Shown one piece after another: positions 39,783 through 64,000 of a stretch of 64,000 nt of DNA. How positions within the stretch are numbered: the stretch's first letter is position 1; each line of letters starts with the position of its first letter. The translations under genes and the position numbers were made by a program. The notes under the pieces are model-generated. The model ran no database searches and was not told where the DNA came from. It saw nothing but the letters and a program-made list of their open reading frames with translations. Source of the DNA: Myxococcales bacterium (GTDB taxonomy: Bacteria > Myxococcota_A > UBA9042 > JABWCM01 > BTVJ01); NCBI GenBank assembly GCA_045863395.1, contig BTVJ01000025.1:31448-95447 (forward strand), in the 5' to 3' direction.

Positions 39783-42020
39783 TCAGGCGGACCGACGGCG
39801 CCCGACGACTGCGGCAAGCCCCCACAGCAGAAGAAGGAGCGACCCCAGGGGGACGCCGGGTGCTGCGGAGCAGCCGGAGCCAGAGCTCGACGCCTTCGAC
39901 CCTCCAGGTGGCGCCTCCACTCCCTTGGTGCAGCCGCAGGTCGTAATCTCTCCGGGGCTCGGCTTCTTGCAGACCGCGAAGTCGGTGGAGTTCTCATCCG
40001 TGTCGTAGCCCTCGCAGCGTGTCAGCGACTGACCCTGACCCGGCTTCTTCGCAAACTTGCCCTCACCGACGCCAGCGGCCGTGCACGTGGGGAGATCCGC
40101 CCCGTAGACCAGGCTGTCCACGACCTTGGGGCCGTCCGAGGCGGCGAAGACCAGCGCCACCCCGTCCGGGCCATCCTGCAGGTCGGCCTTGGCGTTCAAC
40201 AGGCCCGCCAGGGCGGCGTGAGTGTTGCCGTCCTTGGTGATCACGAAGTAGCCGGAGGCGGGGATCTCCTCGTCGGTCAGCGGGATGGTGGCGTACACGT
40301 CGCACTTCGTGCCGGTGGCGCCGTTGTAGGCAAGCACGGAGAAACACGAGAGGTCCGTGCCAGGCTCCCCCCAGATCTCGATGAACGCATCCACACCCTT
40401 GCTGACCTGGATCTCGCTGATCTTGGGCACCACGGTGGGCAGCTTGCAGGAGCCACCGCCACCTCCTCCTCCGCCACCACCGCACACGTTCGGCCCACCG
40501 GGCGTCGGAGCGGCGACCCCGAGATCCGCCCCGTGCGCCCCCGTGTCTGCCCCGTCCGGGCACCGCGCCACCGCCTGGCTCTTCGCCGCCTTGGGCCCCG
40601 CGCCCTTGTCGAGCCCCGCCTCGGTGCAGGAGCCAATCTCGCCGTTCCACGCGAGCTGGTCTATGATCGCGGTGCCGCTCGTCCCGTTGAAGACGACCCG
40701 GAAGGCGTCGGGGCCGTTCTGGAACGCAAAGCCGTACACCATGTCCGCGCCGGCCAGCTCGTTCTTTGCGATGACCAGGTAGCCGCTCGGGGGAATCGAG
40801 AGACCGCCGAGCCCCAACGTCTTCTCGACCTTGCAGGTCGCCCCGCCGGTGCCGCCGTTGATCTCCAGCAGGGAGTAGCACCGCAGGTCCGTCCCCGGCG
40901 GCCCCTTCAGCTCGACGAAGGCCTCGGTGTCCGGGTCATAGACCACCTCGTTCACCACGATGGCCACATGCGAGTCCCCGCAGGGTGCAGGGCAATTGTT
41001 GGACTCCCCCGGCGTGGGCGGCGTCTCCACCCAGTCCACGGAGTCGTTGCCGCTCGTCCCGCACCTCGACAGGCTGTTGTCTTTGGGCGCCGGAGCGGCG
41101 TGGCCGCTGCCCACCTCGGGGCACGCACCCAGGACCGCGCCGTAGGCGACCCCATCGACCAGCACATCCTCGTCGTCCCCCTTCCAGACGAGCTTCACGG
41201 CGTCCGGGCCGACCTGGAGATCGATCTCGATGACTGCGAACCCGCCAGCGTCCAGGCTCCGACCGGCCAGCGCGTGCACCGTCGGGTCGCACTTGTCGCC
41301 CGCCGTGCCACCGTTGAGCTGCACGAGGGCGTAGCAGCCGAGGTCCGTCCCCGGGTCGCCGACCAGCTCCACGAACTCGACGCCGGACTTCAGCCTCAGC
41401 TCGCTGAGACGCACTGCCCCGACCGGCTCCGCGCCGCAGGAGGCCGGCGCTGGGCAGTCGTTGGGCCCGCCGGGGGTCGGCTTGGCACATACCTGGAAGT
41501 CCTTCCCATTGACGTTCGTGTCCACCCCGTCGGCGCGCCCGATGCTCTTCCCGTTGGCCGGCGCCAGGGCCGGGAGCCCTCCCTCGACCACCGGCGTCTC
41601 GCACGCGTCGAGCGCACCCCCATAGGCCAGCGTGTCGATGTGCGCGCCGGAGGCCGTGTGGACGAGCGTCACGGCGTCGGGACCGTTCTGCAGGTCCGCC
41701 TTTGCCGAGACGAGGTCCGCCGTGTCCGCAGTCGCGATCAGGAAGATCCCGTCCTCCGGGATGGTGGTCCCGGCCGGGATCGCGATGGTCGCGTACACGT
41801 CGCACTTGTCGCCCGCTTCGCCCCCGTTGGTCGCCACCAGAGAGAGGCAGTCGATCAGCGCCCCGGGGGGCCCGACGAGCTCGATGAAGGCCCCCTCCTT
41901 CGGGCCGACCTGCACCTCGTTGATCAGCACGGAGCCCGCTGTGCCGTCCGGGCACTGGGCGGCCACGGGGCGCGCGAGCAGCAGCGCGAGAGCTGCGACG
42001 GTCAGGGAGATCGGCCTCAC
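39783..42020 (-). CDS. Surface protein with four lamin-tail-like domains and a MYXO-CTERM-like anchor
   Basis: Signal peptide; four repeats of (I/V)(N/S)E..F(I/V)E(L/I).G.PG..C..NG..Q.GPD.V.L..D..YG..S..R..PTPG; C-terminus SGCSAAPG-hydrophobic-RRR. Confidence 0.8.
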   Translation of the reverse strand: MRPISLTVAALALLLARPVAAQCPDGTAGSVLINEVQVGPKEGAFIELVGPPGALIDCLSLVATNGGEAGDKCDVYATIAIPAGTTIPEDGIFLIATADTADLVSAKADLQNGPDAVTLVHTASGAHIDTLAYGGALDACETPVVEGGLPALAPANGKSIGRADGVDTNVNGKDFQVCAKPTPGGPNDCPAPASCGAEPVGAVRLSELRLKSGVEFVELVGDPGTDLGCYALVQLNGGTAGDKCDPTVHALAGRSLDAGGFAVIEIDLQVGPDAVKLVWKGDDEDVLVDGVAYGAVLGACPEVGSGHAAPAPKDNSLSRCGTSGNDSVDWVETPPTPGESNNCPAPCGDSHVAIVVNEVVYDPDTEAFVELKGPPGTDLRCYSLLEINGGTGGATCKVEKTLGLGGLSIPPSGYLVIAKNELAGADMVYGFAFQNGPDAFRVVFNGTSGTAIIDQLAWNGEIGSCTEAGLDKGAGPKAAKSQAVARCPDGADTGAHGADLGVAAPTPGGPNVCGGGGGGGGGGSCKLPTVVPKISEIQVSKGVDAFIEIWGEPGTDLSCFSVLAYNGATGTKCDVYATIPLTDEEIPASGYFVITKDGNTHAALAGLLNAKADLQDGPDGVALVFAASDGPKVVDSLVYGADLPTCTAAGVGEGKFAKKPGQGQSLTRCEGYDTDENSTDFAVCKKPSPGEITTCGCTKGVEAPPGGSKASSSGSGCSAAPGVPLGSLLLLLWGLAAVVGRRRSA

Positions 42021-42033
42021 GGGTTCACCTCAC

Positions 42034-44199
42034 TCAGAACTTCACGTCGACGACGCCACGGATGACGTGTTCGGGGTTGCGCTCGGGCGGGGATGCGTCG
42101 AAGAACCACCGCAGGTCGTACCGAACATAGCCCTTCACGTACTTGAGTATGTTGAAATCCACCCTGGCATACCACTCCACCCACTCGTCGCCGCTCTCCT
42201 TGTCGGGGACGCCGTCACCGTCGGTGTCCTCCTCCACGGACTCGATGTCCTCGTTGGCGAGCTTCACGCGGGTCGAGAACCCGAGGAAGGGGACGGGCCT
42301 CACCCCGATGCGCAGCCAGGTGCTGTAGTCGGTCTGGAACTTGTCCTCGTACTTCTTGATGTCCTTCCACGACATCTTGTAGTAGGCGGTGATGGTCGTG
42401 AGCGGGATCGCCCGCAGCGTCGTCTGGAGCCCCCAGTCCACCTTCATTCCCTGGCCGTAGGTGCTCGCCTCGTTGGCGGCGGCGACCGCGGCCTCGTCGG
42501 GCGTCAAGCCCTCGTCCAGGAAGGTCTCGAAGGCGCTGTCGAGGTCGATGTCCGTCGACAGGCCGTAGTCCTGCTCCCGCCCGCCCTCGGTCAGGTCCTT
42601 GTCGTTGTACTTGACCCAGGTGCTCAGCCGCAGCTCCCGGATGGGCTCGAAGTCCTGCCGGGTCGATGCCTCCAGGTCCGTGCGGTCGATGGTCGGGTGG
42701 TTCCAGACGTTGAGCACGGCCTGGGCCTTCCACCACCGGAACGCCTTGGCCACCATCCGAACGCGCCCGCCCACCTCGTCCCGGGCGCGCCGCCCGAGCA
42801 GCTCATCGGGCGCCGCCTCCCCCCGCCCGTGGGGGTTGTCGTAGGTGTCGTCGTAGTAGCGCAGCGCGATCTCCAGGTCCACGGGCTCCAGGTCGAGCAT
42901 GGAGCGCAGCACGGCCCCGTTCCCGCCGTTGTCCGTGCGCGCGTACTCGAAGAAGAGGTCGACGATGCCCGTGCCCCACGCGGCGTCGGCGCCGACGGTC
43001 CAGAACGAGTCGCGGTAGGGGAGGGAGGCCGAGGGCGCCCAGTGGACCTCCCCGTCGCCGAACTGAAAGTGTGTCTTTGCCCAGTACCCCGTCACTCCGA
43101 AGTGCGCCCGCCCACCGAAGCGCGTGGTCCAGTTGCCGCCCACGAGGAGCTCGTCGTAGACGTTGGGGAAGGTCTCGTAGGCGAAGCACCGCCCCTCGCC
43201 ATAGCAGGACTTCTCGCCACCGTCGGCGTCCTCGTCGGAGAAGTAGGTCCGGTTGGGCCGGTAGTCGTACATGTATTGATGGTACCGCCACCAGGAGAAC
43301 AGCGCCGTCACGTCCATCCAGACGTCGTCGGTCAGGTGCATCTCGGTGAGCTGGGCCGCGGCACCGAACAGCCCCTTCCGCGGGTTGAAGTCCACCTTCC
43401 TCGTGTCGATGCTGTCGCTCACGAGATCATCCGAGTACCAGCCATAGGGGCGCCGGCGGGTCGTCGTGTCCAGCACCAGTCGCTCCCCGAAGCCCGCATT
43501 GTAGGACCCGATGATGAACGCCCCCCGCGCCTTGTCCCACAGCTCCGTGTCGAGCCACAGGTAGACCTTGGGCGCGTACTCGTAGGTGTAGGCTGGCGCA
43601 TCCGCGATCATGTACTGCTCGGCGCCCGTGTCCACGAAGCGGGGCTGCCCCGGCGCCTCGTGGACGATGCCCACGTAGCCGAAGCCGACCAGGTCGTCCC
43701 AGCCGTCGAGCCGCAGCCGCAGGTAAGCGACCGGGCCGCCCTCGTCCCCGATGGCCTCGGCCACCTTCACCCGCACGCTCCCGCCGATGGGTGGGGGAGG
43801 CGGCGTGCGCGAGACGACGTAGAGAAAGACGCGGATCTGGGCGAGCACGTCCGAGGGAAGGCCGACGACGTCCTCCAGGTTCGACACGCTGGAGAACCAC
43901 CCCCCACGAGCGGCGCGCGCCTCGATGATCGCGTCGGCCATGGGGTAGGTGATGCCCGGCAGCTCGAAGAGGTCGTCGCGCCCCGCCCGGTTCAGGTCGA
44001 CCTTCTTCTCCATCAGGTCGAGCAGGAGGTCCCGCTCCCCCTCGGTCAGGTCGCCGTTGCTGAACAGGTCGAGGATGTCCTCCTCGGTGTCGACGAGGAT
44101 CGGGACGTCGTAGACCTCGGCGCCAACGGGCCCGGAGAAGAGCGCGACCCCCAGGGCGACCAGGGGCGCGAAGAGCCGTCCAGTGCGATGCAGGCCCAC
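42034..44199 (-). CDS. ComEA-type helix-hairpin-helix domain fused to a putative outer-membrane beta-barrel
   Basis: Signal peptide; KVDLNRAGRDDLFELPGITYPMADAIIEARAARGGWFSSVSNL (HhH); long aromatic-rich beta-stranded region; terminal VVDVKF. GTG start inferred. Confidence 0.75.
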   Translation of the reverse strand: MGLHRTGRLFAPLVALGVALFSGPVGAEVYDVPILVDTEEDILDLFSNGDLTEGERDLLLDLMEKKVDLNRAGRDDLFELPGITYPMADAIIEARAARGGWFSSVSNLEDVVGLPSDVLAQIRVFLYVVSRTPPPPPIGGSVRVKVAEAIGDEGGPVAYLRLRLDGWDDLVGFGYVGIVHEAPGQPRFVDTGAEQYMIADAPAYTYEYAPKVYLWLDTELWDKARGAFIIGSYNAGFGERLVLDTTTRRRPYGWYSDDLVSDSIDTRKVDFNPRKGLFGAAAQLTEMHLTDDVWMDVTALFSWWRYHQYMYDYRPNRTYFSDEDADGGEKSCYGEGRCFAYETFPNVYDELLVGGNWTTRFGGRAHFGVTGYWAKTHFQFGDGEVHWAPSASLPYRDSFWTVGADAAWGTGIVDLFFEYARTDNGGNGAVLRSMLDLEPVDLEIALRYYDDTYDNPHGRGEAAPDELLGRRARDEVGGRVRMVAKAFRWWKAQAVLNVWNHPTIDRTDLEASTRQDFEPIRELRLSTWVKYNDKDLTEGGREQDYGLSTDIDLDSAFETFLDEGLTPDEAAVAAANEASTYGQGMKVDWGLQTTLRAIPLTTITAYYKMSWKDIKKYEDKFQTDYSTWLRIGVRPVPFLGFSTRVKLANEDIESVEEDTDGDGVPDKESGDEWVEWYARVDFNILKYVKGYVRYDLRWFFDASPPERNPEHVIRGVVDVKF

Positions 44200-44200
44200 C

Positions 44201-44719
44201 CTACTGCCCCTCGTTCCACACGCGCTGGAACTCGACGCTGTACTGGCCCGCCAGCTCCGGGGAGCGCAGCACGAGCAGGTTCTCATCGTTGTTCCAGTTG
44301 GCGTTGTTGGTGAAGTTGAACGACCCCGTGGCGACGGTCTCGCCGTCGATGATCACGAACTTGTGGTGCATGGTCGCGGAGTTTCCGTCCTCGCGCACGT
44401 AGACGCCCCCACCCTTCAGCAGCGCGATGTTGGAGGCCATCGCCGCGATGGACCCGTGCTGCTGCTGCTCGTAGAGCACCCACACCTGCACGCCTCGGCC
44501 CACGGCGTCGATCATCGCCTGGGCGATCTCCGGGTCCGTGAACGAGTAGATGGCGCACTCGACCGTGCTGCCAGCCCCTTCGATGAGGCCAGTGACCACC
44601 TCGGAGCAGGTGCCGTGAGGCTCCGAACAGAAGTACACGTCGGGCGCGGCGACGTCGTCGGCGCAGGCAGAGAGGAACAGCGGCGCGAGGAGCGCCCCCA
44701 TGGCGCGTTTCAGAGTCAT
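44201..44719 (-). CDS. Phospholipase D-superfamily (Nuc-like) single-HKD lipoprotein, probable nuclease
   Basis: FLSAC lipobox; AIYSFT..IAQAMIDAVGRGVQV; MHHKFVIIDGETVATGSFNFT..NDEN. Confidence 0.85.
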   Translation of the reverse strand: MTLKRAMGALLAPLFLSACADDVAAPDVYFCSEPHGTCSEVVTGLIEGAGSTVECAIYSFTDPEIAQAMIDAVGRGVQVWVLYEQQQHGSIAAMASNIALLKGGGVYVREDGNSATMHHKFVIIDGETVATGSFNFTNNANWNNDENLLVLRSPELAGQYSVEFQRVWNEGQ

Positions 44720-44811
44720 GGGCGCGGATTGTAGCAGCGCCCTGCGCGCATGCGCCAGCCACAAAGCGGCAACGGGACGGCGCGGTGACGATCACCGGAG
44801 CCGTGCGGGGG

Positions 44812-50642: not shown

Positions 50643-51572
50643 TCAGGGGGCCTCTCTGTCCAGCATCTCCCGGGCGAGGTCTCGAACCAGCGCGTGCGCG
50701 TGGCTCTCGGCCATCTCGCCGAGGTAGCGGCGCGCAAGCTCCGAGTCGAGGTCTCCGAGCGCGTGCACGGCGGCCCGCAGCACGTCCGGGTCGTTGCTGG
50801 ACGTCAGCCTCGCCAGCGGCCGCACGGCCCGCTCGTCGCGCAGCCGCCCGAGGGTGACGGCGACCGACTCCAGGAGCGCCGTGTCGTCGGACCCAAGCGC
50901 GTCAATCAATACGGGCACCGCCGCCGTCAGCCGACGTTCGCCGGCCTCCACCGCCGCCTGGGAGCGCTCGGCGGCTCCCCCTTCGCGCAGCAAGCGCAGC
51001 AGCTCGGCGTCCTCCACGTGGTGCACGAGGATTCGAGCCTCCAGCCGCTCCTTGGCGACGCGGGTCACATCGCCGAGCAGCCCCTCCACGGTGGCCCCGA
51101 CGGGCGCCCCCTTGCGCCACGCCGCCTCGCGCCGCTGCTCGTCCCGGTAGAGCTCGGCAGTGACTCCCCGCACGCGGCGCTCGGCCTCCGCCCGGACCGC
51201 CACGTAGAGGGTGCCCTCGTCGGCGGCCGGTCGCGGCTCGTCGCCGTCCAGGAGCTGCACGATGTACGCAGCCCTCACCTCGAAGCCGCCGTCAGCGCCG
51301 GCGCGGTCTGGCGCCCAGGGCAGCGCCCCCCGCTCCTTCCACGCGTCCCTGACCACGTCTTCGATGGCGGCGGAGAACGTCGCGGGCCGATCTGCGTTTG
51401 TAGACAACTCGGCCACCATCACCGCCGAGATGGCCAGCCGGTCGGGCGTGAGGCGCACCTCGGCCGCGGGCGCGACCACCGGCGGAGTGGGGGCTGGTGG
51501 CCGGACCGGCTCCTCGGAGCGGCAGGCGCCCAGCAGGATCAACGGCAGCCATCGAGCGGAGGACACAGTCAT
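50643..51572 (-). CDS. HEAT-repeat lipoprotein
   Basis: LLGAC lipobox; AVPVLIDAL..LGRLRDERAVRPL..AAVHALGDL repeats. Confidence 0.72.
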   Translation of the reverse strand: MTVSSARWLPLILLGACRSEEPVRPPAPTPPVVAPAAEVRLTPDRLAISAVMVAELSTNADRPATFSAAIEDVVRDAWKERGALPWAPDRAGADGGFEVRAAYIVQLLDGDEPRPAADEGTLYVAVRAEAERRVRGVTAELYRDEQRREAAWRKGAPVGATVEGLLGDVTRVAKERLEARILVHHVEDAELLRLLREGGAAERSQAAVEAGERRLTAAVPVLIDALGSDDTALLESVAVTLGRLRDERAVRPLARLTSSNDPDVLRAAVHALGDLDSELARRYLGEMAESHAHALVRDLAREMLDREAP

Positions 51573-51606
51573 GAGGACACCGAGTATAGCATGGCGGGAG
51601 GTCGTC

Positions 51607-51635
51607 TTGACCAACGGGCGAGGTCAGGGTAGGGT
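51607..51635 (+). promoter_or_regulatory. Putative sigma70 promoter
   Basis: TTGACC-N17-TAGGGT upstream of ATG 51697. Confidence 0.45.
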
Positions 51636-54488: not shown

Positions 54489-55856
54489 ATGCTCGAAGGG
54501 ATTCGCACCATACACCTCATCGGGATCGGGGGCATCGGCGTCAGCGCCGTGGCGCGCGTGCTGAACCAGCGGGGCTTCGCCGTTCGCGGGTCGGACGTCC
54601 GCGAGTCGTCCATCACGCTGGCGCTGCGCGAGGAGGGGGTGGACGTGCGCATCGGCCACGCAGCCTCCCACCTGGACGGCGTGGATCTCGTGGTCCGCTC
54701 CACGGCCATCCCGGCGACAAACCCGGAGCTGGTCGCCGCCGCCGAGCGGAGAGTGCGTGTCGTGCACCGCTCCGAGGTGCTCGGAGAGCTGCTGGTCGGC
54801 AGGGAGTCGGTAGGGGTGATCGGGACCCACGGCAAGGGAACGGTCAGCGCCATGATCGCGTGGGTGCTCGAGGCGGCCGGTCGCGCCCCGGGCTTCGTCA
54901 TCGGCGCCATCCCCCACAACTTCGGCGTCAACGCGCGAGACGGCAGCGGCCCGATCATCGCCGAGGTCGACGAGAGCGACGGGTCCCTGGTCAACGTGCA
55001 CCCTCGCTGGGCGGTCCTGAACAACCTGGAGCTCGACCACCTCAACTACTACCCGGACTGGGAGACCCTCTCGTCGACCGTGCGGCGCTTCTACCTGGAG
55101 AACCACGAGCTGCGAGCGTCCATCGTCAACGTGGACGACGAGGGGGTGCGCAGGCTGCTCCCGCTCCTCGATGGCGTCGAGCCCGTGACCGCTGGCCTGC
55201 GCCCTGAGGCGCGCTACCGCGGGACGGACGCCCGGACCGAGGGCATGGTCGGCCGCGTCGCCGTGTCCCTGGACGGGGCGCCGGTCGGGGAGCTCACCCT
55301 GCGCGTGCCTGGGCTCTACAATGTGCACAACGCGCTGACAGCAGCCGCCACCTGCCACGCCATGGGCGTGCCGTTCGAGGACGTGGAGCGCGGGCTGGCC
55401 AGCTTCGAGGGGCTGGAGAACCGGTTCACCCTCGTGTCGGCGGGGGGGGTACAGGTCGTCAAGGACTACATCTCCCATCCCACCGGCATCAAGCGGGTGC
55501 TGGAGGCGGCGCGGGAGATCGCGCAAGGGCGCATCACGGCGGTGTTCAAGCCCTACCGCTTCACGATGATCCACTATCTGCAGGACCAGTACCGGGAGTG
55601 CTTCCGGGAGGCGGATCGCCTGGTCATCACGGAGCTCTACACCGCAGGGGAGGTCCCCATCCCGGGCGTCGACGCCCCGTGGCTGTGCGACAAGGTGCGA
55701 GAGTCGGGAGCGGACGTGACGTTCGTGCCGGCCATGGAGGACATCGTCCCCTGGCTGCGGGCGCACGTCGGCTCGGGGGAGCAGGTGATCTTCTTTGGCG
55801 GCGATGACCTGTTCCGGCTCGCCGACGCGTATGTGGACCAGCTTCGCGCCCCCTGA
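54489..55856 (+). CDS. MurC-like Mur ligase with non-canonical substrate motifs
   Basis: HLIGIGGIGVSAVA, GTHGKGT, EVDESDGS, LDHL and GLYNVHNA. DYISHPT replaces DYAHHPT, and KPYRFTM replaces QPHRxxR. Confidence 0.85.
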   Translation: MLEGIRTIHLIGIGGIGVSAVARVLNQRGFAVRGSDVRESSITLALREEGVDVRIGHAASHLDGVDLVVRSTAIPATNPELVAAAERRVRVVHRSEVLGELLVGRESVGVIGTHGKGTVSAMIAWVLEAAGRAPGFVIGAIPHNFGVNARDGSGPIIAEVDESDGSLVNVHPRWAVLNNLELDHLNYYPDWETLSSTVRRFYLENHELRASIVNVDDEGVRRLLPLLDGVEPVTAGLRPEARYRGTDARTEGMVGRVAVSLDGAPVGELTLRVPGLYNVHNALTAAATCHAMGVPFEDVERGLASFEGLENRFTLVSAGGVQVVKDYISHPTGIKRVLEAAREIAQGRITAVFKPYRFTMIHYLQDQYRECFREADRLVITELYTAGEVPIPGVDAPWLCDKVRESGADVTFVPAMEDIVPWLRAHVGSGEQVIFFGGDDLFRLADAYVDQLRAP

Positions 55857-55880: not shown

Positions 55881-56045
55881 ATGGATCCGTTGATGGTGGT
55901 GTGCCCCGAGTGTGGCGAGGACGTAGAGCTCCCCGAGGACGTCGAGGAGGGCGAGATCGTCGAGTGCGACAACTGTGGCGCCGAGCTGGACGTGACGAGC
56001 CTGGATCCGCCCGAGGTCATGCTGTTCGAGGAAGACGAGAAGTGA
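55881..56045 (+). CDS. LysW-like acidic zinc-ribbon protein, 54 aa, not in the ORF track
   Basis: GGAGGAG RBS then ATG. Translation MDPLMVVCPECGEDVELPEDVEEGEIVECDNCGAELDVTSLDPPEVMLFEEDEK*, with CPECG..GEIVECxxCGAEL.V..LDP as in LysW. The stop overlaps the next GTG. Confidence 0.85.
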   Translation: MDPLMVVCPECGEDVELPEDVEEGEIVECDNCGAELDVTSLDPPEVMLFEEDEK

Positions 56046-56905
56046 GCAGTCAACGCGAGGCGGTGTCCGCGATGCTCAGCGACCTCGTGGACCTGTGGCG
56101 GGCGCGTCATGGGACGCCCGTGGCGCGCTTCGACGTGACGGCCGATGGACGCCACGTGTCCGGTGCGGTGCTGACCCGCGCCCAGGCTGGGGAGATCGCG
56201 ATGCGGCTCCCCGACGACGTGTCGCTCAACCTCCAGATCCTCGAAGATCGGTCGGAGGTGCCCCCTCTCGGCTGGATGAGGCCCGTGGGGGCCCTGGCCC
56301 CGCTCTACCGAGGAGCGGATCTCGGGCGCTTGACCACCGAGGTCCTGGGGACCGACGGCGCGGTCCGGGCCCTGGAACGGGAGGGAGGCGCGGTCCTCGT
56401 CCAGGCAGATGACGACACCCTCGGGTGGGCGTTGGCCACCGACCTGACGGTGGCGGATGCAGGGAAGACGGAGGTCCTGGTCGACGGAGAGAGGATCCCT
56501 GCCCAAACCGACACCATCGTGCGGTTGTGGGACGCGGCGCGGCCGTTCGTGGAGGCTCGCACCCCGTACGTGCTCGGCGGGCGGTCAGATGGTCGGGCGG
56601 ACTGCTCGGGGCTCGTGTCGCTCGTGTTTCGCCGCGCCACCGGGGCCATCCTCCCGCGGCACTCCATGGATCAGCGTCGCCTCGGCGAGCGGGCCTCGCG
56701 GGCGGAGGCGCGCCCGGGGGACCTGATCTTCGCGCGGCTCGGTGACACGAACATCCCCCACGTGGGCTTGCTGCTCCCAGGGGACCGGGGGCTCGACATC
56801 GTCCACGCCTCCCAGCGCGCGGGTCACGCCGTGCGCCAGCCTGAGGCCGAGTTCCTGGAGGGCTATCGCTTCATGGCGGTGCGCCGGGTGCTTGGCGATG
56901 TCTGA
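56042..56905 (+). CDS. NlpC/P60 (C40) cysteine peptidase without a signal peptide
   Basis: PYVLGG..DCSGLV..LPRHS..PGDLIF..HVGL..IVHAS. GTG start in a GTGA overlap with the LysW-like stop; the ORF-track start at 55859 is probably over-extended. Confidence 0.88.
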   Translation: MSSQREAVSAMLSDLVDLWRARHGTPVARFDVTADGRHVSGAVLTRAQAGEIAMRLPDDVSLNLQILEDRSEVPPLGWMRPVGALAPLYRGADLGRLTTEVLGTDGAVRALEREGGAVLVQADDDTLGWALATDLTVADAGKTEVLVDGERIPAQTDTIVRLWDAARPFVEARTPYVLGGRSDGRADCSGLVSLVFRRATGAILPRHSMDQRRLGERASRAEARPGDLIFARLGDTNIPHVGLLLPGDRGLDIVHASQRAGHAVRQPEAEFLEGYRFMAVRRVLGDV

Positions 56906-58367
56906 GGCCCGTACGTTCGGGGAGTTCGCGGCCTCGCTCCGCGGAGCAAGGATCCACGTGGCGGGCCTTGCCGGCACGGAGTGCAGCGCCTTCCTGCGGG
57001 CCCTGTCTCGCCACGGCGTGACCGGCGCCATCGTCCACGATCTGTCTCCCGACCGGGAGGCTCTGGCGCGCACGTTCTCCACGACCCACGTCGCCCTCCC
57101 CCCCGACGAGCGGGAGGCGCTGCTCGTCCAGCTCTTGGCCGAGGTGGAGGACCTGCGGCTCGGCGACCGCTATCTGGAGGGCATCGAGGAGGCGGACGTC
57201 CTGTTCGTCAGCCAGGCGTGGGACCTCTACCCCCGGAATGCGCCCGTCGCCGCGTTCCTGGCCTCCTCGCCGGAGCGCGTCCTGACGTTGATGGACCTGA
57301 TGCTCCGGTTCCTGCCCTGCCCGGTCATCGGGGTCACGGGGACCAACGGCAAGACGACGACCGCGTCCATGCTCGTGGCCTTGCTGGAGGCAGCAGAGGT
57401 CGCGGTGGCCACGGGCGGGAATCACCGCTATCACGACCAGCTCCTACCCGGCATCGACGCGATCTCGAAGGACGCGGTGGCGGTGCTGGAGGTCTCGCAC
57501 AAGCACCTGGCCAGGCTGGCGCGAGGGCCGGCCGTCGCCGTGGTCACCAACGTGACGGGGGACCACCTGGACCAGCTCCCGCGGCACGAGTACGAGGCGC
57601 GAAAGGCGCGGCTGGTCGAAGTGCAGCACCCCGGGGACCTCTCCGTACTCTGCGCCGACGATCCGGTGTGCAGGAGGCTGGCCGCGCAGGCGCCTGGCCG
57701 CGTGGCGCTGTTCTCGGTTCACGGGGACCCTGCGCCGGAGGCCGACGCAGCCTGGTTGCGCGGCGCAAACCTGGTGGTGCGTGTCGGGGGCGACCAGGTG
57801 GTGGTCCCCCGCGCCGCAGTCCAGCAGCCGGGCCTTCACAGCGTGGCCAACGCGCTGGGGGCCATGCTGGCCGTGTCGCCCTGGGTCAGGGACGCCCGGA
57901 CACTGGGGCGGGGGCTGCGTGCGTTCCGCGGAGTGCGGCACCGGCTCGAGTACCTTCGGCGCATCGGCGGGATCCCGGTCTGGGATGACTCTGCCTCCAC
58001 ATCGCCGGCTGCCACCCTCGCAGCCGTGGAGGCGCTGGTCGAGGAGGGAGCGGCGCAGGTGGTCCTGGTCGCCGGCGGAGACGACAAGGGCAACGACTGG
58101 TCTGCGGTGGCGCGTGTTGGTGGGCGGGTCCGGGCGCTGGCGTTGCTCCCCGGGACGGCCGCGGATCGTCTGGCAGAGACCCTCCCCAACGTTCCGGCGA
58201 CGCGCCATGTGAATCTGAGGGAGGCCCTGGATGCGGCGCTCCTTGCGGCCCAGCCTGGTGACGCGCTGCTGGTGTCCCCCGCAGGAGCGGGCTTCTTCGC
58301 GCGCTTCGCCGAGGGGGACGGGGATGCCCCCGGTCTGCGCGCCATGATCCGGCGCTGGGGGCGCTGA
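56898..58367 (+). CDS. MurD-like Mur ligase, divergent
   Basis: IGVTGTNGKTTT, TNVTGDHLD, FRGVRHRLE, GGDDKG and LVSPAG. EVSHKHL and DDSASTS differ from the canonical ELSSFQL and NDSKATN. Confidence 0.82.
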   Translation: MSEARTFGEFAASLRGARIHVAGLAGTECSAFLRALSRHGVTGAIVHDLSPDREALARTFSTTHVALPPDEREALLVQLLAEVEDLRLGDRYLEGIEEADVLFVSQAWDLYPRNAPVAAFLASSPERVLTLMDLMLRFLPCPVIGVTGTNGKTTTASMLVALLEAAEVAVATGGNHRYHDQLLPGIDAISKDAVAVLEVSHKHLARLARGPAVAVVTNVTGDHLDQLPRHEYEARKARLVEVQHPGDLSVLCADDPVCRRLAAQAPGRVALFSVHGDPAPEADAAWLRGANLVVRVGGDQVVVPRAAVQQPGLHSVANALGAMLAVSPWVRDARTLGRGLRAFRGVRHRLEYLRRIGGIPVWDDSASTSPAATLAAVEALVEEGAAQVVLVAGGDDKGNDWSAVARVGGRVRALALLPGTAADRLAETLPNVPATRHVNLREALDAALLAAQPGDALLVSPAGAGFFARFAEGDGDAPGLRAMIRRWGR

Positions 58368-63294: not shown

Positions 63295-64000
63295 CTACGG
63301 ACAGACAGCCCCGCACGGGGACACTGCCTCGGACACGCAGATAGAGTCCCAGGCAGTGCCGCAGCAGAAGGGATCGATTGCGCAGACGCAGTTCTGGATG
63401 CCTGCATTTGAGCATCCCGGAGTGCCCTGTGCCGTGCAGCATGTCCCGGCGCTAGACCCACCGCACATCTGGATCGCCTCGTCCGCACAGATACCGTCCC
63501 AGGCCGTGTTGCAGCAGAACGAGTCCACCGCGCACACCGTCTGGCAGCAGCTCACGTTCGAGCAGCCGGGAGTGCCGTTGGCGCTGAAGCAGTCGCCGCC
63601 CTGACCGGGGCAACCGCCCGGGCAGGCGCCGCAGTCGTTCGGGCACGTCGTGCACGTCTCCGTGCCGTTGCACGCGCCGTCACCGCAGACCGGCGGGGGC
63701 GGGCCGCACATCTGGGTGGCCTCGTCCGCACAGATGCTGTCCCAGGCCGTGTTGCAGCAGAACGAGTCCACCGCGCACACCGTCTGGCAGCAGCTCACGT
63801 TCGAGCAGCCGGGAGTGCCGTTGGCGCTGAAGCAGTCGCCGCCCTGACCGGGGCAACCGCCCGGGCAGGCGCCGCAGTCGTTCGGGCACGTCGTGCACGT
63901 CTCCGTGCCGTTGCACGCGCCGTCACCGCAGACCGGCGCCACCTGGCACATCTGAGCAGCCTCGTCGGCGCAGATGCTGTCCCAGCCCGACTCGCAGCAG
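63295..64000 (-). CDS. Cys-rich repeat protein, C-terminal part; starts beyond the right edge
   Basis: Repeats of CCxTAWDxICAxEA and VCGDGACNGTETCTTCPNDCGAC; the frame is open to the window edge. Confidence 0.75.
   Translation of the reverse strand, partial: CCESGWDSICADEAAQMCQVAPVCGDGACNGTETCTTCPNDCGACPGGCPGQGGDCFSANGTPGCSNVSCCQTVCAVDSFCCNTAWDSICADEATQMCGPPPPVCGDGACNGTETCTTCPNDCGACPGGCPGQGGDCFSANGTPGCSNVSCCQTVCAVDSFCCNTAWDGICADEAIQMCGGSSAGTCCTAQGTPGCSNAGIQNCVCAIDPFCCGTAWDSICVSEAVSPCGAVCP
63461..63938. repeat. Near-identical 243-bp tandem duplication (81-aa unit), with a third copy starting near 63946
   Basis: 63461-63695 recurs at 63704-63938 with few mismatches. Confidence 0.88.

Follow-up and report, generated by a model that had tools for sequence, protein, structure and literature searches.

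The window, that is, the whole stretch of 64,000 nucleotides that was analysed, carries a gene for a variant MurC and, directly 3ʹ of it, genes for a LysW-like protein, an NlpC/P60 peptidase and a divergent MurD (MurD*), which overlap or lie close to one another. The features considered below are as follows, in window coordinates.

54489..55856, + strand: variant MurC (UDP-MurNAc:amino-acid ligase), 455 aa, the genome's only MurC
54822..54845, + strand: P-loop GTHGKGTV, with the catalytic Lys kept and the Mg1-binding Thr (T130 of H. influenzae, according to the accessible part of PMC3060825) replaced by Gly
55461..55487, + strand: KDYISHPTG, with Asp and Tyr kept and the equivalent of His348 (same source) replaced by Ser329
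55548..55568, + strand: KPYRFTM, with the Arg377 equivalent kept, His376 replaced by Tyr, Arg380 by Met and Gln by Lys
55791..55808, + strand: FFGGDD loop (residues 435–440), which replaces GAG[DN] and places a new Asp439 on a pocket loop
55881..56045, + strand: LysW-like zinc-ribbon protein, a putative lysine-tailed carrier, 54 aa, ending in FEEDEK; 58.6 bits on PF21344
56042..56905, + strand: NlpC/P60 cysteine peptidase with an SH3-like region (PF00877), starting with GTG at 56042 or ATG at 56072
56898..58367, + strand: divergent MurD (MurD*), 489 aa, the genome's only MurD-like gene

An alpha/beta hydrolase gene (PF12146; 58368–59225, +) begins right after the MurD* stop codon.

The variant murC ORF has an ATG start preceded by GGAGG and a GC3 of 0.92; a scan for promoters and terminators returned 0 sites. 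The protein scored 376.4 bits on TIGR01082 (MurC; cut-off 335.1), compared to about 490–540 bits for canonical MurCs of the same phylum. The best Foldseek match of its AF2 model (68 homologues as input, mean pLDDT 92.4) was H. influenzae MurC 1p3d (E 1.4e-48, TM 0.91), a closed product complex with which the model has the three-domain Mur ligase fold in common. In contrast, the variant stayed below the cut-offs of TIGR01081 (Mpl; 156 vs 388.7 bits) and NF053645 (pseudomurein ligase pMurC; 97 vs 560 bits), and the (S/T)A(F/Y)FDK loop of Mpl is absent from it. Mpl resembles the variant in its MurC-like fold, in ligating UDP-MurNAc and in missing the second Arg of QPHRxxR, but the genomes that carry the variant encode Mpl as a separate gene, and Mpl sequences group in a clade of their own in the tree.

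The first-pass annotation called the gene a MurC paralogue, a designation that was not supported, as no second murC was found in the window's genome (G000) or in four single-contig relatives. In G000, which is 97% complete, the variant was the only match above the MurC cut-off, the second match to the profile was Mpl, as identified by its signature, and tblastn with four canonical MurC queries gave nothing better than the variant. The dcw cluster of this genome (contig C35; L016 2669–15788) reads ftsI-murE-murF-mraY-ftsW-murG-murB-ftsQ and, from mraZ to ftsQ, neither murC nor murD nor ddl was seen in it. Its ftsL and ftsI are separated by a TPR-like gene, and its MurE retains DNPR (meso-DAP type). 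Further Mur-ligase matches on contig C22 were rejected, as sequence inspection identified them as cyanophycin synthetase genes; at that site (L017 6916–12244), a cyanophycinase-like gene is followed by a cyanophycin synthetase gene and a second Mur-ligase-domain gene.

A single murC over the cut-off was present in 36 of 41 related genomes, at the coordinates of the variant matches, and the motifs were read directly in 30 loci. The other five genomes were G002 (62% complete, no match), G010 and G013 (Mpl only), and G017 and G020 (partial variant). Twenty secondary MurC matches were fetched, comprising 19 Mpl and one truncated canonical-type fragment (G012), and the single-contig genomes G052, G198, G329 and G331 had the variant and Mpl only. 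It is this variant that serves as the only MurC throughout the class and in related families; six families outside the class also have it, and variant MurCs formed one clade (SH-aLRT 100 in a quick tree of 105 rows). Records carrying it include 'Myxococcales bacterium' and 'Persicimonas sp.'; the accessible part of PMC7188933 describes Persicimonas as a cultured predatory genus of Bradymonadales, an order with cultured members. Usually, variant murC directly precedes an ordinary murD away from the dcw cluster: dcw neighbours (murG not counted; flanks 1.5–4 kb) were seen at 0/50 variant loci, compared to 17/20 canonical-type loci of the same phylum. A HEAT-repeat protein gene (50643–51614, −) is a recurrent upstream neighbour of variant murC (11 loci), indicating that the window locus is the class's usual murC-murD site.

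These data bear on whether the gene might be a true paralogue or an inactive copy with a side function, the canonical murC being merely missing from the assemblies. Such a reading would fit the location outside dcw, the loss of the Mg1 Thr and the truncated canonical-type fragment in G012. However, canonical murC is absent from the four single-contig genomes and, by four tblastn queries, from G000, and the variant is conserved where it is alone and decayed only where canonical murC is present (see below). This reading is largely refuted, and we regard it as extremely improbable. Judged by gene content, the variant acts as the first ligase, and is the only such enzyme to start the cell-wall peptide in a large, mostly uncultured group of Myxococcota.

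Both the conserved scaffold and the altered motifs read by the first-pass annotation were confirmed: GIGGIG (residue 12), EVDESD (159) and DHL (183) are kept, and GTHGKGTV (112), ENRF (310), KDYISHPTG (325) and KPYRFTM (354) are changed. A fifth change, from GAG[DN] to GGDD, had been overlooked. Among 240 homologues, all had GKG[TS], NR[FY], KD[YF]xSHP and KPYRxx[ML], 236 had FGG[DN]D, and none had GKTT, DDYxHHP or QPHR. As the motifs are common to all 240 homologues, their conservation indicates that the pocket changes are neither chance nor decay. When 50 variant and 21 canonical MurCs of the same phylum were aligned, the two groups differed completely at G117/T, N311/R, S329/H, Y356/H and G438/A; G438 was found in 49/50 and D439 in 47/50 variants, compared to A and G in 21/21 canonical enzymes, which we take to be A459 and G460 in MurC numbering. 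The catalytic and ATP-site residues K116, E159, H184, R312 and D326, corresponding to H. influenzae K129, E173, H198, R326 and D345 (numbering transferred by motif via alignments to other solved MurCs), were kept in all 50 variants.

The amino-acid site of MurC comprises Y346, H348, H376, R377 and R380, and T130 and E173 of the H. influenzae enzyme are Mg1 ligands (PMC3060825, accessible part). By this description, the variant keeps the equivalents of Y346 and R377 and carries H348S, H376Y and R380M/L, and the Mg1 ligand Thr130 of GKTT is Gly in 240/240 homologues. Known MurCs (TIGR01082; H. influenzae 1p3d, P. aeruginosa and E. coli 2f00) are like the variant in passing the cut-off, in fold, in the catalytic Lys, Glu, His, Arg and Asp, and in pathway position beside murD. 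Unlike them, the variant has Gly for the Mg1 Thr, has lost the equivalents of His348, His376 and Arg380 together with the GAG loop, and is encoded outside dcw, never with PgeF in the genomes scored. The GKG[ST] P-loop resembles that of FolC, so an enzyme without the Mg1 Thr need not be inactive, though its activity could be lower. The variant is a new form of a known enzyme, with the role and fold of MurC but without the full set of residues that define its L-Ala site, and the name L-alanine ligase should therefore not be assumed.

The pocket of the recycling ligase is changed as well. Mpl of G000 (C5:163853–165199, L002) has EAESNT and MSGR instead of EPRSNT and MSNG, and this change is clade-wide: the Arg of EPR was present in 28/28 controls (two of 30 control loci were unparsed) vs 0/25 clade members, in which SNG has mostly become SGR. 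The altered loops match those altered in the variant MurC, and the changed positions are named as peptide-binding in the accessible part of PMC3060825. The MurD of the variant clade (e.g., L070 and L009) has a GTDGK P-loop in 26/26 sequences, compared to GTNGK in 25/25 controls; in addition, SFQLE has become [AC]FQL[WLIT] and DHLDR has become DHLDY.

According to the accessible part of PMC12280929, PgeF (YfiH) cleaves UDP-MurNAc-L-Ser and UDP-MurNAc-Gly and is absent from species whose wall peptides start with Ser or Gly. We therefore searched 401 phylum genomes for PgeF, counting it as absent when a genome was not among the matches, and manually compared the outcome with the type of MurC in 201 genomes. 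PgeF was found in 0/72 genomes with variant MurC and in 119/120 with canonical MurC; nine genomes in which no MurC could be scored were left out of this tally, seven of them with PgeF. Across the class, it was found in none of 78 genomes, and a Pfam search at E<=0.01 likewise returned it in none of five, four of them single-contig.

Family f22 contains a reversal. Here, PgeF was present in 8/34 genomes, in six of which canonical MurC was found, and the old variant copies, where read (G126, G154, G289, G326 and G402), had lost P-loop, DH or pocket residues. The presence of canonical MurC alongside a decayed variant indicates that either enzyme can fill the role of the other and that PgeF goes together with the canonical one. 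The decayed genes at L121 (G154), L122 (G126), L329 (G289) and L333 (G326) are full-length or nearly so and still lie beside murD, and their products may keep a non-catalytic role. In the three reverted genomes that were examined, Mpl is still of the altered form and MurD of the clade type, so these changes do not strictly depend on a residue other than Ala. Two genomes depart from the pattern, as G062 has a second, canonical-type MurC and G041 a canonical MurC, both without PgeF. Extra canonical-type murC copies, intact in G062 (L113) and truncated in G012 (L062), were apparently acquired, and neither genome has PgeF. As the whole pattern amounts to about two independent events (one origin and one reversal), the large PgeF and MurC counts overstate the support that they give.

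The first-pass annotation had supposed that the ligated substrate is probably not free L-Ala. The doubt about L-Ala gained independent support from the PgeF pattern, the Mpl loop changes and the association of PgeF with canonical MurC in the reverted sub-clade, whereas the peptide substrate that it implied became less likely, because most relatives have an ordinary adjoining murD and a separate Mpl; a free small amino acid is the likelier substrate. We infer catalytic activity and lean towards the variant being a housekeeping ligase that adds L-Ser or Gly; the PgeF and Mpl patterns argue against UDP-MurNAc-L-Ala being formed. The variant would use ATP to phosphorylate UDP-MurNAc at its lactyl carboxylate and join the product to free L-Ser or Gly rather than L-Ala, so that the clade's stem peptide would start with a non-Ala residue; PgeF, which destroys UDP-MurNAc-L-Ser and -Gly, would have been lost, and Mpl would have adapted to recycling the altered peptide. 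L-Ser would be the foremost single candidate, held tentatively, and Gly is an unlikely one; preferring Ser over Gly is a guess drawn solely from the new hydroxyl and carboxyl groups of S329, Y356 and D439 on the pocket loops. In E. coli, such a ligase would be opposed by the host PgeF.

The variant might instead be a high-fidelity L-Ala ligase, whose rebuilt pocket better excludes Ser and Gly, so that PgeF is unneeded and the wall is ordinary. This would account equally well for PgeF being lost here and for its occurring alongside a canonical MurC that is prone to error, and it agrees with the takeover by canonical MurC while clade-type MurD and altered Mpl remained. There is also a precedent, as Lactobacillales with L-Ala walls and without PgeF exist (PMC12280929, accessible part). 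However, it gives no account of the parallel change of Mpl at its two homologous pocket loops within this clade, and the new residues are polar while H348S and the Ala-to-Gly change remove bulk, which seems unlike a tighter selection for a methyl group. The YfiH preprint, in its accessible part, cites a MurC from a Gly-walled mycobacterium that prefers L-Ala or uses it equally to Gly, with similar kinetics, indicating that wall composition need not follow MurC sequence. Given these kinetics, the roughly two events, G062 and G041, the reverted genomes with their Mpl and MurD, and the Lactobacillales, a high-fidelity L-Ala ligase is still a real rival, if a rather improbable one. Under the preferred reading, with L-Ser or Gly added, the closest parallels are the MurCs of the Ser/Gly-walled Erysipelothrix larvae and Microbacterium oryzae, whose hosts also lack pgeF (PMC12280929, accessible part). 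They resemble the variant, compared by description only, in the non-Ala first residue proposed here, but their hosts are Gram-positive, unlike the variant's clade.

The three genes 3ʹ of murC in G000 form a separate module. The LysW-like protein scored below the cut-offs of TIGR01206 and NF041070, and its tail has E53 and K54 invariant in 11/11 sequences, all of which end in E[ED]EK. The Cys-His-His triad of the NlpC/P60 peptidase is intact, with C188, H240 and H255 invariant in 12/12. MurD* reached 203 bits on TIGR01087 (cut-off 212), the best match in G000, and the nearest folds to its AF2 model (pLDDT 91.7) were MurD structures. A search of the 401 phylum genomes for PF21344 gave matches in 12; ten of the 12 proteins end in [ED]EK, have NlpC/P60 adjoining and MurD* adjacent or nearby, and the remaining matches were one true LysW and one that was weak and unlinked. 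As eight of the ten module genomes lie outside the class of the window's genome, mostly with canonical MurC, the module does not depend on the variant MurC. MurD* was the best MurD match in all eight module genomes tested. When metagenomes were scanned with the MurD* alignment, most matches were ordinary MurD and 1/79 loci (L210) had the module; ESM Atlas returned only LysW-named clusters. Fusions of NlpC with MurD* and natural fusions of MurC with the LysW-like protein (P0015, P0024) also occur. Several loci have genes for a PLP enzyme and an ATP-grasp-like protein after MurD*, and homologues of both lie together in G000 (C1:178480–180905).

Glutamate racemase was found in 308/401 phylum genomes and was not found in G000, G001, G041 or 9/9 f23 genomes; G203 gave a weak match. 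It is likewise absent from families f24, f28 and others that do not have the module, and an additional match to aminotransferase class IV in G054 and G064 may supply D-Glu. The MurL profile NF041275 matched 0/5 genomes including G000, with no positive control matching, and the only aminotransferase of this kind seen in G000 was IlvE-like. In MurD*, the MurD2 stereo-determinants Glu197 and Arg358 are Asp222 and Lys397 (read in P0123), the Thr321 equivalent is kept, Lys348 mostly so, Lys319 is lost in 23/25 and the SPACAS loop is altered; K319T lets E. coli MurD accept L-Glu (PMC8788868, accessible part). The module is like the MurD2/MurL route to D-Glu in its divergent MurD and in a genome without a glutamate racemase found, but differs at both stereo-determinants. 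With LysW amino-group-carrier systems it shares the acidic zinc-ribbon carrier fold, but the tail ends in Glu-Lys rather than EDWGE and G000 has no match over the cut-off for a LysX/RimK partner (TIGR00768).

Because the carrier, NlpC/P60 and MurD* replace murD in G000 and no glutamate racemase was found, the second stem-peptide step is probably unusual too. A plausible route, which we propose with less than even confidence, would have an ATP-grasp enzyme load Glu onto the carrier's terminal Lys, a PLP enzyme racemise the carrier-bound Glu, MurD* add UDP-MurNAc-X to it, and NlpC/P60 release the product from the carrier. Alternatively, the module may salvage prey-derived D-Glu, or a moonlighting racemase may supply it.

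The fusions also bear on whether the variant adds a residue outside Ala, Ser and Gly, such as a larger or charged amino acid (Thr, homoserine or a diamino acid), a short peptide or a carrier-bound residue, in which case PgeF would have no need to edit. This would be in keeping with the joint change of five pocket positions and the P-loop, the new Asp facing the pocket loop, the second Arg, otherwise invariant, kept in 0/240 homologues, and the MurC-LysW-like fusions. On the other hand, no other position-1 residue is known according to the accessible part of PMC12280929, the MurD that comes next in most relatives looks ordinary and goes on working once canonical MurC has taken over, and the LysW-like gene occurs in only 2/41 close relatives and also with canonical MurC. 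We consider such a residue distinctly unlikely. A carrier-fed MurC as a general mechanism was rejected, as the LysW-like gene was over the cut-off in those two relatives only and also occurs together with canonical MurC (G041, family f23). The most far-reaching possibility is a combination, which we hold to be quite doubtful, in which a Gram-negative clade that includes predators would have an unprecedented first residue, other than Ala, Ser or Gly, and G000 would also add the second on a lysine-tailed carrier. If true, that first residue would shield the clade's own wall from MurNAc-L-Ala amidases possibly used on prey, and both first stem-peptide steps in G000 would be run by undescribed chemistry.

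Of the features of peptidoglycan, L-Ala at position 1 is one of the most conserved. The accessible parts of PMC12280929 and the YfiH preprint name exceptions that are Gram-positive or mycobacterial, and the former states that how Ala, Ser and Gly are told apart is not understood. In the literature searched, with subscription journals mostly uncovered, there was no paper on this MurC type, on Bradymonadales wall composition, or on LysW together with peptidoglycan and MurD; the accessible parts of PMC10745416 and of the pseudomurein preprint contain no mention of this MurC type. If stem peptides throughout a large Gram-negative clade did begin with a residue other than Ala, assumptions on wall chemistry would change, and predators might have in it a mechanism of self/prey discrimination. 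Even a high-fidelity MurC would be new, and the family offers naturally occurring pocket changes, conserved throughout, together with a natural reversal for testing residue discrimination.

Elsewhere in the window, large secreted Cys-rich or repeat proteins are encoded at 39783–44764 (−) and 63295–64000 (−). The former region includes a phospholipase D-like nuclease ORF at 44201–44764 (−), and the latter, at the window end, is a tandemly repeated Cys-rich ORF.
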